Positions 2,789 to 36,917 of a stretch of 64,000 nt of DNA are shown here, piece after piece. This DNA is from a bacterium (lineage in GTDB: Bacteria > Patescibacteriota > Minisyncoccia > UBA6257 > JAGOQP01), in assembly GCA_021801825.1 (NCBI GenBank), contig JAJYXK010000007.1:24509-88508 (forward strand), in the 5' to 3' direction. The notes under the pieces are model-generated. The model saw nothing but the letters and a program-made list of their open reading frames with translations, made no database searches and had not been told where the DNA came from. Both the position numbers and the translations under genes were made by a program. Position 1 is the stretch's first letter; every line of letters starts with the position of its first letter.

Positions 2789-6168
<3,380 letters not shown>

Positions 6169-6301: not shown

Positions 6302-6447
6302 AAGAAGCATTTCATTTGCTGGTGATCTAGTGTTGCGTGCCCCACCTCTTCCCATTCCGAACAGAGAAGTGAAAGCGTAATACTCCGATGATACTCGTTC
6401 GCGGGGAAAGTAGGATTTGCCAGCATATGAAATGCTTCTTTTTTATT
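6302..6447 (+). other. 14-bp inverted repeat (aagaagcatttcat ... atgaaatgcttctt) enclosing the whole 5S gene, followed by T-run: processing stem / operon terminator
   Basis: Perfect complementarity 6302..6315 with 6428..6441, then tttttt. Confidence 0.55.
6318..6424 (+). rRNA. rrf: 5S ribosomal RNA
   Basis: gctggtgat...cccattccgaacagagaagtgaaag...gccagc; terminal helix pairing. Confidence 0.9.
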
Positions 6448-34575: not shown

Positions 34576-35727
34576 TTATTGTTGTGAAAACTTCATAGAG
34601 AGCACCATCTGCTCAACATTTGCGGTCATGCGCAAAATGTCGTTTTCTAATTTATCGGGAGCTTGGTAGAGCGCGTTGTTTGAGAATGGAATTTGAACGC
34701 GGTGGATCTTAAATTGAAACGCATAACAAGTCCCATTATATGAAGTGTAGTAGTAAATGTAATCAGAGCGTTGATTGTTTATTCCAAAATCGCTTCTCTT
34801 TATTCTTTTAAATAGTTGATAAAGTCCCTGTAAGGTATCTATGTTTCCATATACATAACCACGTGCAATGTTTACTTCGGCGGTGGTGGGGCAGGCATCG
34901 GCGTTTCCGGGTTTCTCAGATAGGATTATTTCAGAGGCATCTACCGTTTCAATATCATTGGCGTGAATGTAGTAATTCAGCTTAGGCGCCAATTTTAAAA
35001 CGGTGGTCCCAGGATACTGTGGTCCAAACGAAGCAAAAGAAAAATCATCGGGGTAGGTGAGAGAAAAATTATGTTGGATATCTTTGTAGGTTTGCCAAAC
35101 CGATTGTGGGTGCTGCGAAGAGTCAGGTGAAGCAATGTTAAATTCATCACTTAAGTCTTCGGCGATTGTTCCCTTTGGTGTGGTGCTATGAACACGAAGA
35201 CGATATGAGCCATTAGATATCGTTACATCAGAAAACCACACATATGTTCCAGTGTCGGCGGTATTAGTGACAATATTTTTTACAATCGCGCCACTCTGAT
35301 CTTGTAAATCAAGAGTTATATTTTTAAGACCTGCTAATTTTGATTTCCACAAAATGATAGCAACTGGGGTGTGATAGCGCGGATCATTGATGAGCGTTTT
35401 GTTACGCGTGGGATAGAGTATAGAAATAGCCGATGGTGATTGGGGGATAGTAACCGTAGGAGCATCTGGTAAAGAATTTTGTGTTGAGGGTGATGATGGT
35501 ACCGTTGAAAGAGTCGTTCCTTGTCCTTGTTGATAGGTGTTATTTTCTGGATTTTTTAGCTGATAAGGTATTCCCACAGTTGTAGTAGTGGGGGATTGGG
35601 TGTCGTCTGTGGAAGTTGGTGTTGTTTTGCTCCCGTATGAAGAGATTCCAATACCAATTCCGATAATGACCACAAAAATAACAACAAATACGGCGAGGGG
35701 TATATGTTTTTTTGGTAAACTAATCAT
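34576..35727 (-). CDS. Membrane-anchored extracellular hypothetical protein (Thr/Ser/Pro-rich linker, beta-rich C-terminus)
   Basis: N-terminal TM LAVFVVIFVVIIGIGIGI. Confidence 0.5.
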   Translation of the reverse strand: MISLPKKHIPLAVFVVIFVVIIGIGIGISSYGSKTTPTSTDDTQSPTTTTVGIPYQLKNPENNTYQQGQGTTLSTVPSSPSTQNSLPDAPTVTIPQSPSAISILYPTRNKTLINDPRYHTPVAIILWKSKLAGLKNITLDLQDQSGAIVKNIVTNTADTGTYVWFSDVTISNGSYRLRVHSTTPKGTIAEDLSDEFNIASPDSSQHPQSVWQTYKDIQHNFSLTYPDDFSFASFGPQYPGTTVLKLAPKLNYYIHANDIETVDASEIILSEKPGNADACPTTAEVNIARGYVYGNIDTLQGLYQLFKRIKRSDFGINNQRSDYIYYYTSYNGTCYAFQFKIHRVQIPFSNNALYQAPDKLENDILRMTANVEQMVLSMKFSQQ

Positions 35728-35842
35728 AGTAATTATGATATATCAAAACGTGAGGAATTAAAATCATCGGTTGATTTTTGAGCTTAAAAAAAGTATGCTG
35801 TTTTATGTTATAAGTTATATATTGTTAGTTTTCTGTTGTTTT

Positions 35843-35888
35843 GGAGAGGTGTCAGAGTCCTGCCTGCCGGTAGGCAGGGGTCTATTGT
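35843..35888 (+). repeat. Direct repeat copy 1: tRNA-Ser positions 1-16 + 20-nt hairpin insertion (cctgcctgccggtaggcagg) + tRNA positions 17-26/30
   Basis: ggagaggtgtcagagtcctgcctgccggtaggcaggggtctattgt(gcag). Confidence 0.85.
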
Positions 35889-35906
35889 GCAGAGTTACTT
35901 ATAATT

Positions 35907-36152
35907 ATGTACTTTGTGTATATCTTAAAAAGTGAAAAAGATGGTGGAATATATGTTGGTAAAACAAACGACATTCATCGAAGACTCTTAGAGCACAACG
36001 CTGGACACACACAGTCGTTAAAAAACAGGACACCCCTAACACTTTTAGAATGCATAGAGTGTGGAACAGAAGAAGATGCTCGTCATCTTGAAAAAGAATA
36101 CAAGAAAGGATATAAGCGTGAGGAGATAAAAAGAAAGTACAATTTACAATAA
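35907..36152 (+). CDS. GIY-YIG nuclease family protein (81 aa, UPF0213/YazA-like)
   Basis: MYFVYILKSEKDGGIYVGKTNDIHRRLLEHN GIY-YIG motif; flanked by 46-nt direct repeats. Confidence 0.7.
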   Translation: MYFVYILKSEKDGGIYVGKTNDIHRRLLEHNAGHTQSLKNRTPLTLLECIECGTEEDARHLEKEYKKGYKREEIKRKYNLQ

Positions 36153-36157
36153 AATAT

Positions 36158-36203
36158 GGAGAGGTGTCAGAGTCCTGCCTGCCGGTAGGCAGGGGTCTAT
36201 TGT
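36158..36203 (+). repeat. Direct repeat copy 2 (identical 46 nt), ends in TATAAT 42 nt upstream of tRNA-Ser
   Basis: ggagaggtgtcagagtcctgcctgccggtaggcaggggtctattgt + ataat. Confidence 0.85.
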
Positions 36204-36245
36204 ATAATCCTCGACATATTCTATATTTACATAAAGCATGAGTAT

Positions 36246-36332
36246 GGAGAGGTGTCAGAGTGGTCTATTGTGCAGCTTTGCTAAAGCTGTGGGGCTTAAC
36301 CGCCCCCGGGAGTTCGAATCTCCCCCTCTCCG
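36246..36332 (+). tRNA. tRNA-Ser (anticodon GCU), long variable arm, G73
   Basis: GGAGAGG acceptor, anticodon arm CAGCT-TTGCTAA-AGCTG, variable arm GGGGC-TTAACC-GCCCC, T-arm GGGAG-TTCGAAT-CTCCC. Confidence 0.85.
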
Positions 36333-36440
36333 CAGTAAGAACTTTTTATCGGATGACCTGAATGCCCGCATATTTCCTTACTTTTTGAAAATCAAAATTT
36401 ATTAAAAAGCAGGCAGGAGGAAGGGATTCGAAATATAATT

Positions 36441-36917
36441 ATGAAAAACCCAGAAAAAAGCTTTCAATGGATAGTGAATATTTTACAAAAACATAACGTT
36501 CCTTTTGTGGTGACGGGGGGACTTGCCGCAAAAAGTTATGGATCTCCACGACCGCTTAACGATATTGATATAGATATTCATGATAATGACTTTGCAAAAA
36601 TAATAGATGACATAAGACCATATCTTACCTTTGGTCCTGCGGTGCTTGTTGATGAGCGATGGGACACTATGCTTGCAACGTTAAATTATGAGGGGCAAGA
36701 TATAGATTTGAGTGGGGGAGATACACTTAAAATATGCGATGCGCGAACAGGAGAATGGAAACTCAACAAGACCGACTTCTCAAATGTTGAACATAAAGAT
36801 ATTTTTGGAATCACGGTCCCCGTTGCTATCCGTGAAGATCTTATAGCGTATAAATCAATGTTAGAAGGAGACCATCAATTAGTTGATATTCAAGCGATGA
36901 AAGATTCTATAAAATAA
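36441..36917 (+). CDS. Minimal nucleotidyltransferase of the pol-beta superfamily, Lnu(A)/ANT-like (158 aa)
   Basis: VTGGLAAKSYGSPRPLNDIDIDIH fits hG[GS]-x9-13-DhD NTase motif; size and C-terminal region resemble lincosamide nucleotidyltransferases (from memory). Confidence 0.5.
   Translation: MKNPEKSFQWIVNILQKHNVPFVVTGGLAAKSYGSPRPLNDIDIDIHDNDFAKIIDDIRPYLTFGPAVLVDERWDTMLATLNYEGQDIDLSGGDTLKICDARTGEWKLNKTDFSNVEHKDIFGITVPVAIREDLIAYKSMLEGDHQLVDIQAMKDSIK

Follow-up and report, generated by a model that had tools for sequence, protein, structure and literature searches.

The DNA analysed here (the window) is a stretch of 64,000 nucleotides (nt) of contig JAJYXK010000007.1, from a bacterium of the Patescibacteriota, and the subject of this analysis is a small GIY-YIG nuclease gene that lies in it between two tRNA-derived direct repeats, upstream of an intact tRNA-Ser(GCU) gene on the same (forward) strand. 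The repeat is exact over 47 nt (35842-35888 and 36157-36203), and both copies consist of GGAGAGGTGTCAGAGT, equal to nt 1-16 of the tRNA-Ser(GCU), followed by a 20-mer hairpin, CCTGCCTGCCGGTAGGCAGG, and by GGTCTATTGT. In the first copy, the outer arm (35843-35858, identical to 36246-36261) is followed by the hairpin (35859-35878), placed between tRNA nt 16 and 17 in the D-loop, and by an inner arm that matches the tRNA over 14 nt, to nt 30 (35879-35892). The second copy has the same outer arm (36158-36173) and hairpin (36174-36193), with an inner arm matching over 10 nt, to nt 26 (36194-36203). The open reading frame (ORF) of the nuclease, of 81 amino acids (aa), lies at 35907-36152 and is the sole coding content of the 315-nt unit. 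A 42-nt spacer (36204-36245), whose first bases overlap a TATAAT hexamer at 36203-36208, separates the second repeat from the intact tRNA-Ser(GCU) (36246-36333). This tRNA was called by ARAGORN, matched the Rfam tRNA model in a local search (48 bits, E=4e-9), folded as a cloverleaf (-40.1 kcal/mol, z=-3.8) and is read here as the rebuilt functional gene. Identical tRNA-Ser-derived repeats with a 20-nt hairpin insertion around a GIY-YIG gene had been described by a sequence-only reading of the locus, and they were found as described, the exact repeat being 47 nt. The accompanying claim that the ORF fills the gap between the repeats exactly was almost right, as the ORF starts 18 nt past repeat 1 and stops 5 nt short of repeat 2.

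The locus was also recovered from other data. A contig of a public metagenome-assembled genome (GCA_027422995.1), placed in Patescibacteria by the names of its homologues, was 100% identical over the locus, and repeat 2, the spacer and the tRNA were reproduced exactly in three independent assemblies (Logan SRR13178629 and SRR22746134, and ENA ERZ27237183), whose contigs end inside the repeat, as expected of a true repeat. Because the independent assemblies agree, the repeats were taken as real, and an assembly artefact, which the sequence-only reading had itself allowed for, was rejected.

The nuclease matched the Pfam GIY-YIG domain (PF01541) over its full length (E=1.8e-14), with residues 1-78 aligned to profile positions 1-77 of 78. 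This catalytic domain covers the whole 81-aa protein, which lacks a separate DNA-binding module. Residues Y5, Y16, G18, R26, H30, N31 and E62 were invariant in an alignment of eight nuclease sequences; these include the two Tyr, Arg, His/Asn and Glu that we take to be the catalytic core. The nearest solved structures were the UPF0213 proteins 1ZG2 (E=2.9e-5) and 1YWL (E=5.8e-5), over residues 2-72, and the protein has the UPF0213-type characters (about 80-110 aa, catalytic domain only, similarity to BH0048 and EF2693). It is therefore classed, from its sequence, as a bona fide GIY-YIG domain of UPF0213 type. None of the curated NCBIfam families reached its cut-off with this protein, and the PADLOC defence-system models gave only marginal matches, with E above 8e-4, to the candidate model PDC-S14. 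Its close homologues numbered 52, mostly from Patescibacteria. Within the lineage found at tRNA-Ser, the ratio of non-synonymous to synonymous divergence (dN/dS) was 0.07-0.15, with synonymous sites at or near saturation (proportion of synonymous differences, pS, 0.57-0.80). Because of this low ratio, the gene is judged to be under purifying selection and predicted to be functional.

The arrangement is shared by the relatives of the window nuclease. L213 (88% identity) and the groups L215-218 and L219-222 (76%) all lie at tRNA-Ser(GCU) and have their hairpin inserted at the position used in the window, and for every homologue whose context was fetched the layout of this subfamily was tRNA-Ser nt 1-16, hairpin, nt 17 to about 30, ORF, 4-10 nt and intact tRNA-Ser(GCU). 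L213 shares left-hand synteny with the window and holds a single unit; in their alignment, the window has 88 extra nt that correspond to the second repeat plus the 42-nt spacer, which is, on this comparison, a second unit devoid of an ORF. The sequence-only reading had named diverged repeats in related genomes as an outcome that would speak against it; the arrangement was present in relatives, with repeats that were conserved and that tracked the local tRNA. The inner arm of the first fragment is identical in L213, and over fragment plus hairpin 50/50 nt were identical between the two loci, with the following 14 nt differing at three positions. At a pS of 0.57, the probability that a neutral 20-mer stays unchanged is about 4e-8. 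As the hairpin is unchanged where synonymous sites are saturated, and has no tRNA partner from which it could be corrected, it is taken to be under sequence-level selection and functional, and not a scar.

An orthologue (56% identity) of the upstream 383-aa gene led to an empty site. In L271 and L272, the orthologous flank is followed by a tRNA-Ser identical at 85 of 88 positions, without fragment, hairpin or ORF. The orthologous target is thus polymorphic for the presence of the cassette, being empty in L271/L272 and occupied in the window, L213 and L273, so that the comparison of tRNA-Ser loci proposed by the sequence-only reading gave both states. In L273, an older fragment with two decayed hairpins lies beside the native flank, and a fresh fragment with a canonical hairpin follows. 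Synteny through the nucleotidyltransferase gene downstream of the tRNA was uninformative, the homologues of that gene lying in unrelated contexts.

The wider class was surveyed in 80 metagenome loci that were picked by nuclease similarity only. The query was a four-sequence alignment, the eight-sequence one being too diverse, and the sample covers the KSGxGKEFLK subfamily; the subfamily of the window was sampled separately. An intact tRNA on the same strand just after the ORF was found in 65 of the 80 loci (eight of the remaining loci are cut contigs), and these 65 tRNAs represent 21 anticodon types. The distance from the ORF match to the tRNA had a median of 8 nt and was at most 20 nt in 55/65. 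Upstream of the ORF, about 60 loci carry a 5' copy of the same tRNA, which begins at nt 1 in 57/60 and ends between nt 15 and 74 (median about 36). A hairpin with up to three mismatches to the 20-mer was present within 130 nt upstream of the ORF in 57/80, and the perfect palindrome CCTGCCTGCCGGCAGGCAGG, from which the hairpin of the window differs by one base, in 39/80. The GC-hairpin insertions form three clusters, one at nt 20-23, where the D-loop ends on its 3' side (typically ...GGTA|GAGC...), one at nt 14-15, seen in tRNA-Leu, and one at nt 9; survey loci without the 20-mer have related or different GC hairpins at the same positions. The layout of the unit is a front part of a tRNA broken in a loop by a conserved 20-nt GC hairpin, a GIY-YIG gene of about 80 aa and a complete tRNA gene. 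Tandem units and units without an ORF were present in other lineages too.

A TAnnTTTG promoter box of Bacteroidota type was found upstream of the fragment in 16 of 57 loci, compared with 1 of 57 upstream of the tRNA. Because the box precedes the fragment, the fragment occupies the original place of the tRNA; most simply, the ORF and the tRNA would form one transcript, from which RNase P would release the tRNA. In 33/69 cases, a nuclease and its nearest neighbour had the same anticodon, where chance alone would give 5%, and isoacceptors clustered together. Nuclease similarity thus tracks tRNA type, as expected of a spread that depends on tRNA sequence. Membership of the window locus in this class and the functional conservation of the cassette are well supported. 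The class is widespread and apparently undescribed: in the open full-text literature, the sequences themselves included and subscription-only literature lying outside this scope, no description of the cassette or of the palindrome was found.

The two arms around the hairpin have not changed to the same extent. Over 60 loci, the outer arm had 1.3% mismatches to the tRNA and the inner arm 5.7% (Fisher p=4e-6). In a mirror variant (L176, L179, L166), an intact tRNA-Leu with its terminator is followed by the ORF, a short decayed arm, the hairpin and a near-perfect 3' part of the tRNA with a terminator; L063 and L143 resemble mirror-image cassettes as well. Whichever the orientation, the non-restored junction is where the hairpin lies, with a pristine outer arm and a short, eroding inner arm, and older decayed fragments lie distal to the tRNA (L273, L112). 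This asymmetry fits a unit that ends in the hairpin and enters at that loop position; an entry at the variable end of the fragment, with a separate insertion of the hairpin, fits less well.

The 20-mer folds into an 8-bp stem with a CCGG loop (-11.8 kcal/mol) and was found in none of the shuffled versions of the window. Compared with the tRNA, each fragment shows a precise 20-nt insertion without target duplication. At other loci, where the hairpin varies, the changes on its two sides are paired and in shifted registers, so that a stem of 6 bp is preserved (CCAGCC..GGCTGG and CCTGAC..GTCAGG are examples); this points to the folded form as what is read. The window holds three copies, of which two are in the tRNA fragments. 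The third, at 2216-2235, is a solo hairpin of the minus strand. It occupies the loop of a GTCGG/CCGAC hairpin within an ORF at 1736-2386 for a protein with a lamin-tail domain (LTD). The enclosing hairpin itself lies between two GTCCCGAC repeats, and the insertion falls in a linker of the protein, before a C-terminal membrane helix, with the reading frame open through it.

Further copies, which the sequence-only reading had suggested looking for in the genome, were found in other genomes. A scan of one genome per species gave, among the matches listed, at least 120 loci with the exact 20-mer in Bacteroidota, many Patescibacteria, Omnitrophota, Planctomycetota, Chloroflexota, Nitrospirota and delta-proteobacteria, cultured isolates included. 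Among these listed matches, the flanks were mutually unrelated, save for a purine before and mostly a G after the 20-mer, and they paired better than random sites (-12.9 vs -10.0 kcal/mol, p=2e-5); the 20-mer was often in the loop of another hairpin, sometimes nested within its own copy, and 86% of the copies were intergenic. These matches showed no orientation bias relative to the neighbouring genes (37 vs 36 at 3' ends, 31 vs 38 at 5' ends), and with no such bias a sense-strand function of the solo hairpins at the RNA level was rejected. A profile search of 808 kb of DNA selected by the hairpin found seven nuclease genes of the same family, all seven directly beside a hairpin and an intact tRNA in a layout like that of the window. 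The hairpin was present in only 47 viral stretches, with one viral nuclease locus and no plasmid match, and carriage by phages or plasmids was rejected on these counts. Other recurrent GC hairpin families, for example of the GTCATTCCCGCGAAAGCGGGAATC and GTCATCCTGAGC... types, are clustered with the 20-mer and in some cases contain it in their loops (L005, L057, L094, L027, L047, L053, L115), a sign that small hairpin elements may form a broader set in many phyla. In L063, a Dehalococcoidia contig, CCCGCCYRAGGCGGG hairpins stand in place of the D-arm in several tRNA-Met fragments arranged in tandem, and a downstream tRNA copy has at least three different hairpin insertions, among them the 20-mer in the T-loop.

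Several other accounts of the hairpin were set aside. With three copies in 64 kb and no target-site duplication, it lacks the characters of repetitive extragenic palindromic (REP) sequences or of elements like miniature inverted-repeat transposable elements. An origin in a sequencing adaptor or linker was rejected, given its presence in isolate genomes, its nested and mutated forms and its consistent biological context; the comparison was with common adaptor sequences. The mirror variant, which keeps about 75 nt of uninterrupted homology and has its hairpin downstream of the ORF, weakens the ideas of a mere homology-shortener against deletion and of a regulator in the 5' untranslated region. 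A split tRNA or a tRNA intron was likewise rejected: the fragments have no 3' partner, no otherwise complete tRNA was found interrupted only by the hairpin, and no ribozyme was present, a covariance search of 35700-36450 against Rfam with E up to 1 having returned only the tRNA and a sub-threshold chance match.

These results are best accounted for, with a probability that we put at roughly 0.55, by a selfish, homing-type nuclease cassette resident in tRNA genes, of which the window would hold one complete unit and one unit without an ORF. A tRNA-targeting, homing-endonuclease-like mobile cassette was among the proposals of the sequence-only reading, and it gained from the three-part layout at 21 tRNA types, from nuclease lineages that track tRNA type and from the empty orthologous locus. 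The mechanism that we infer would begin with a nick or cut by the nuclease at a loop position of the tRNA gene, here at D-loop nt 16/17. As the protein has no DNA-binding domain, recognition would probably be by the structure of the hairpin-forming, heavily transcribed tRNA gene. The break would then be repaired from an occupied allele, with the displaced resident half (the outer arm) and the rest of the tRNA as homology arms, and the segment copied in would comprise the hairpin, the short inner arm, the nuclease ORF and a replacement for tRNA nt 1-16. In this way an intact tRNA would be rebuilt directly downstream, and the old 5' half would stay upstream, capped by the hairpin. The nuclease would be transcribed from the promoter of the tRNA itself, and RNase P would free the tRNA. 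Re-invasion of the rebuilt tRNA would add units on the tRNA side, and the second repeat of the window with its 42-nt spacer would be such a unit lacking the ORF. The hairpin is regarded as a selected, sequence-specific cis element at the non-restored junction, and is most likely what the nuclease binds. Action as a nickase may make the rebuilt intact tRNA tolerable.

Several points weigh against this scheme. Each of its steps, that is cleavage, binding and transfer, is deduced from sequence. In 65/80 loci the rebuilt tRNA is an intact potential target beside the ORF, although the displaced fragment is disrupted by the hairpin, so that classical homing immunity by disruption of the site would not apply unless a nickase is tolerated. 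The inner arm always matches the local tRNA type; simple homing cannot explain switches between tRNA types. Fragments with two hairpins show no consistent order of relative decay, and the more than 100 solo hairpins in non-tRNA contexts are not accounted for by the cassette model. Viral contigs seldom contain the cassette and plasmids do not, and no transfer vehicle was identified. Finally, it has stayed in place at its locus in lineages whose synonymous divergence is saturated, and such persistence could also mean domestication instead of ongoing mobility. In a speculative extension, which we consider rather improbable, the hairpin would be a handle bound by the nuclease and the tRNA-identical arms a guide (as transcript RNA or single-stranded DNA) that base-pairs to the tRNA gene and so places the cut opposite the hairpin, giving a minimal guide-directed GIY-YIG nuclease. 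If true, this would explain the specificity for the adjacent tRNA without a DNA-binding domain, the identity of the arms to that tRNA, the invariance of the hairpin across phyla and the persistence of hairpin-fragment units without an ORF.

The cassette has also to be weighed against readings in which its parts have other origins. The hairpin and the nuclease could be two independent layers, with the GIY-YIG cassette and the tRNA 5' duplication having entered at the fragment end, in the anticodon-arm region, and the GC hairpins being separate miniature palindromic mobile elements that enter whatever loop is exposed and are tolerated nowhere except in the non-functional copy of the tRNA. That the hairpin stands alone in more than 100 loci of many phyla, 86% of them intergenic and often in the loops of other hairpins or nested in itself, would agree with this, as would the varied insertion sites in the fragments (nt 9, 14-15, 20-23, 32, 39, 45 and 55), the other hairpin sequences at the same places in some loci and the lack of the hairpin in any intact tRNA. 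However, nearly every fragment has a hairpin (about 57/58) though the hairpin is rare elsewhere, with two of the three copies of the window in fragments; it is kept under saturated synonymous divergence, and the seven nuclease genes in the hairpin-selected DNA were all directly beside it. Nor would two layers predict the asymmetry between outer and inner arms, and on balance this reading seems unlikely. A domesticated module, in which fragment, hairpin and nuclease are retained by the host on particular tRNA genes as a leader, processing or addiction system (such as a toxin with an RNA decoy) that is no longer mobile, is harder still to sustain. Such a module would lead one to expect that the cassette is long retained at tRNA-Ser(GCU) and embedded in the tRNA transcription unit, that its ORF evolves under strong purifying selection and that fragment and hairpin are fully conserved, all of which holds here, and it would suit the link of the UPF0213 family to a tRNA methyltransferase gene in other bacteria, but the patchy distribution over 21 tRNA types and many phyla is not, and neither are the tandem and ORF-less units, the empty orthologous site or the mirror variant, where the hairpin lies downstream of the ORF and so cannot be a 5' leader.

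Two further proposals of the sequence-only reading were not supported. One was the scar of an integrated element, in which an integrase would have left an att duplication of the tRNA end, with the nuclease as leftover cargo after loss of the rest. The tRNA-derived direct repeats around a small gene recall such a scar, tRNA genes being classical integration sites, yet no recombinase was found in the unit or adjacent to it, the genes on either side are unrelated, it is the 5' end that has been duplicated and about 60 independent loci show the same minimal unit of three parts. The repeats are also conserved and not decaying, as the 50/50 identity of fragment and hairpin to a relative with saturated synonymous divergence indicates. 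This origin is already contradicted and has hardly any probability left. The other was a promoter-like module repeated in front of two genes; this, or a terminator module in the same role, could draw on the TATAAT hexamers at 35900-35905 and 36203-36208 and on the terminator-like score of the hairpin with its T-rich tail in the window. No sigma-70 site was called at either repeat or in the 42-nt spacer, however, and neither the TATAAT nor the T-rich tail is present in relatives or where the cassette lies at other tRNA types. In the relatives, the tRNA begins 4-10 nt past the stop codon, and in loci of Bacteroidota type it is the fragment, rather than the tRNA, that the promoter box precedes. 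Such a module is scarcely credible, and the same holds for a duplication made in assembly, since independent assemblies reproduce the sequence.

The selfish cassette shares single traits with several known systems. The nearest tRNA-linked example is SegB, a free-standing GIY-YIG homing endonuclease in the tRNA gene cluster of T4 (PMC2330249). As in the cassette, its gene lies among or next to tRNA genes and not inside an intron, and the spread of T4 Seg-type genes by break-induced copying of gene and flanks resembles the mode proposed here. SegB is a larger protein, without a partial duplication of its target and without a conserved hairpin, whereas the cassette is chromosomal, encodes an 81-aa catalytic domain alone and would have the tRNA rebuilt through a replacement half that it carries. 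Nicking by a homing enzyme is known from I-HmuI of SPO1-type phages, an intron-encoded enzyme of the HNH family. It offers a precedent for a homing enzyme that acts on DNA bearing the element without killing the host, which would resolve the paradox of the intact target, but the cassette nuclease is GIY-YIG and not HNH, and its nicking is only proposed. Group I introns have been reported in tRNA genes of Patescibacteria, with no mention of GIY-YIG or hairpins there (PMC13011429). They too are selfish insertions in tRNA genes, in the same phylum; the cassette has no ribozyme, and the tRNA would be kept functional by duplication instead of splicing. Beside the cassettes of L122, L144, L190 and L102, the tRNA-Asn has a long insertion after the anticodon and was missed by ARAGORN. 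This insertion is probably a group I intron of the Patescibacteria kind and, if so, one tRNA gene houses two different selfish elements.

A tRNA gene is also the target of integrative elements that restore it with a copy of the displaced end which they carry; they depend on tyrosine or serine recombinases and mostly duplicate the 3' part, with clean att repeats. The likeness lies in the target and in what flanks the insert, an intact gene at one end and a duplicated part of the tRNA at the other; the cassette differs in having no recombinase, a duplication that is usually of the 5' part, and a leftover copy that is always interrupted by a hairpin. It lacks defining features both of homing genes and of integrative elements: there is no separate binding domain, the target would not be left destroyed, there is no recombinase and the duplication is 5' rather than 3'. 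The hairpin taken by itself recalls the IS200/IS605 and REP/RAYT (REP-associated tyrosine transposase) systems, in which HUH tyrosine transposases use short GC hairpins as a cis element, through its precise insertion, the lack of target duplication and the solo copies scattered in intergenic regions. In contrast to these, the unit has no HUH (Y1) transposase or TnpB, and its single 20-nt palindrome is identical across phyla and low in copy number. Small GC-rich palindromes that enter structured or coding regions of AT-rich genomes are also found as the GC clusters of yeast mitochondria and the Rickettsia palindromic elements. Their insertion even into coding regions compares with the window copy in the ORF at 2216, whereas sequence, size and host range differ, and we know of no link between those palindromes and a nuclease-tRNA cassette.

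If the reading as a selfish cassette holds, it would describe an unrecognised route for a selfish nuclease into essential genes without introns, in which a spare half of the target is carried along instead of splicing. The means would be a protein of 80 aa together with a palindrome of 20 nt, whose sequence does not differ between Patescibacteria, Bacteroidota, Chloroflexota and other phyla. It would also give a testable function to a subfamily of the UPF0213-like small GIY-YIG proteins, of which 1ZG2 and 1YWL have no assigned function, explain why certain tRNA 'pseudogene' fragments exist and why some contigs break beside tRNA genes, and draw attention to a tiny hairpin element shared across phyla. 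Should the hairpin and the arms act as its guide, the enzyme would be a programmable nuclease of very compact form.

Some features around the cassette were also recorded. About 75 nt past the tRNA-Ser, GCAGGCAGG, which equals the 3' half of the hairpin, is found at 36409-36417 and is followed over the next 20 nt or so by the T-loop-like GGGATTCGAAAT; this stretch may be what is left of another hairpin or tRNA fragment. A gene for a 158-aa nucleotidyltransferase-like protein (36441-36917) adjoins the tRNA, and its homologues, 65-75% identical, are found in unrelated gene contexts in other Patescibacteria, so that it behaves as a mobile accessory gene. Elsewhere in the window, the 23S rRNA match (2797-6164) spans 3368 nt compared with 2925 nt in the model, with about 440 nt of insertions; no 16S gene lies adjacent upstream of it, and the 5S gene is at 6318-6425.

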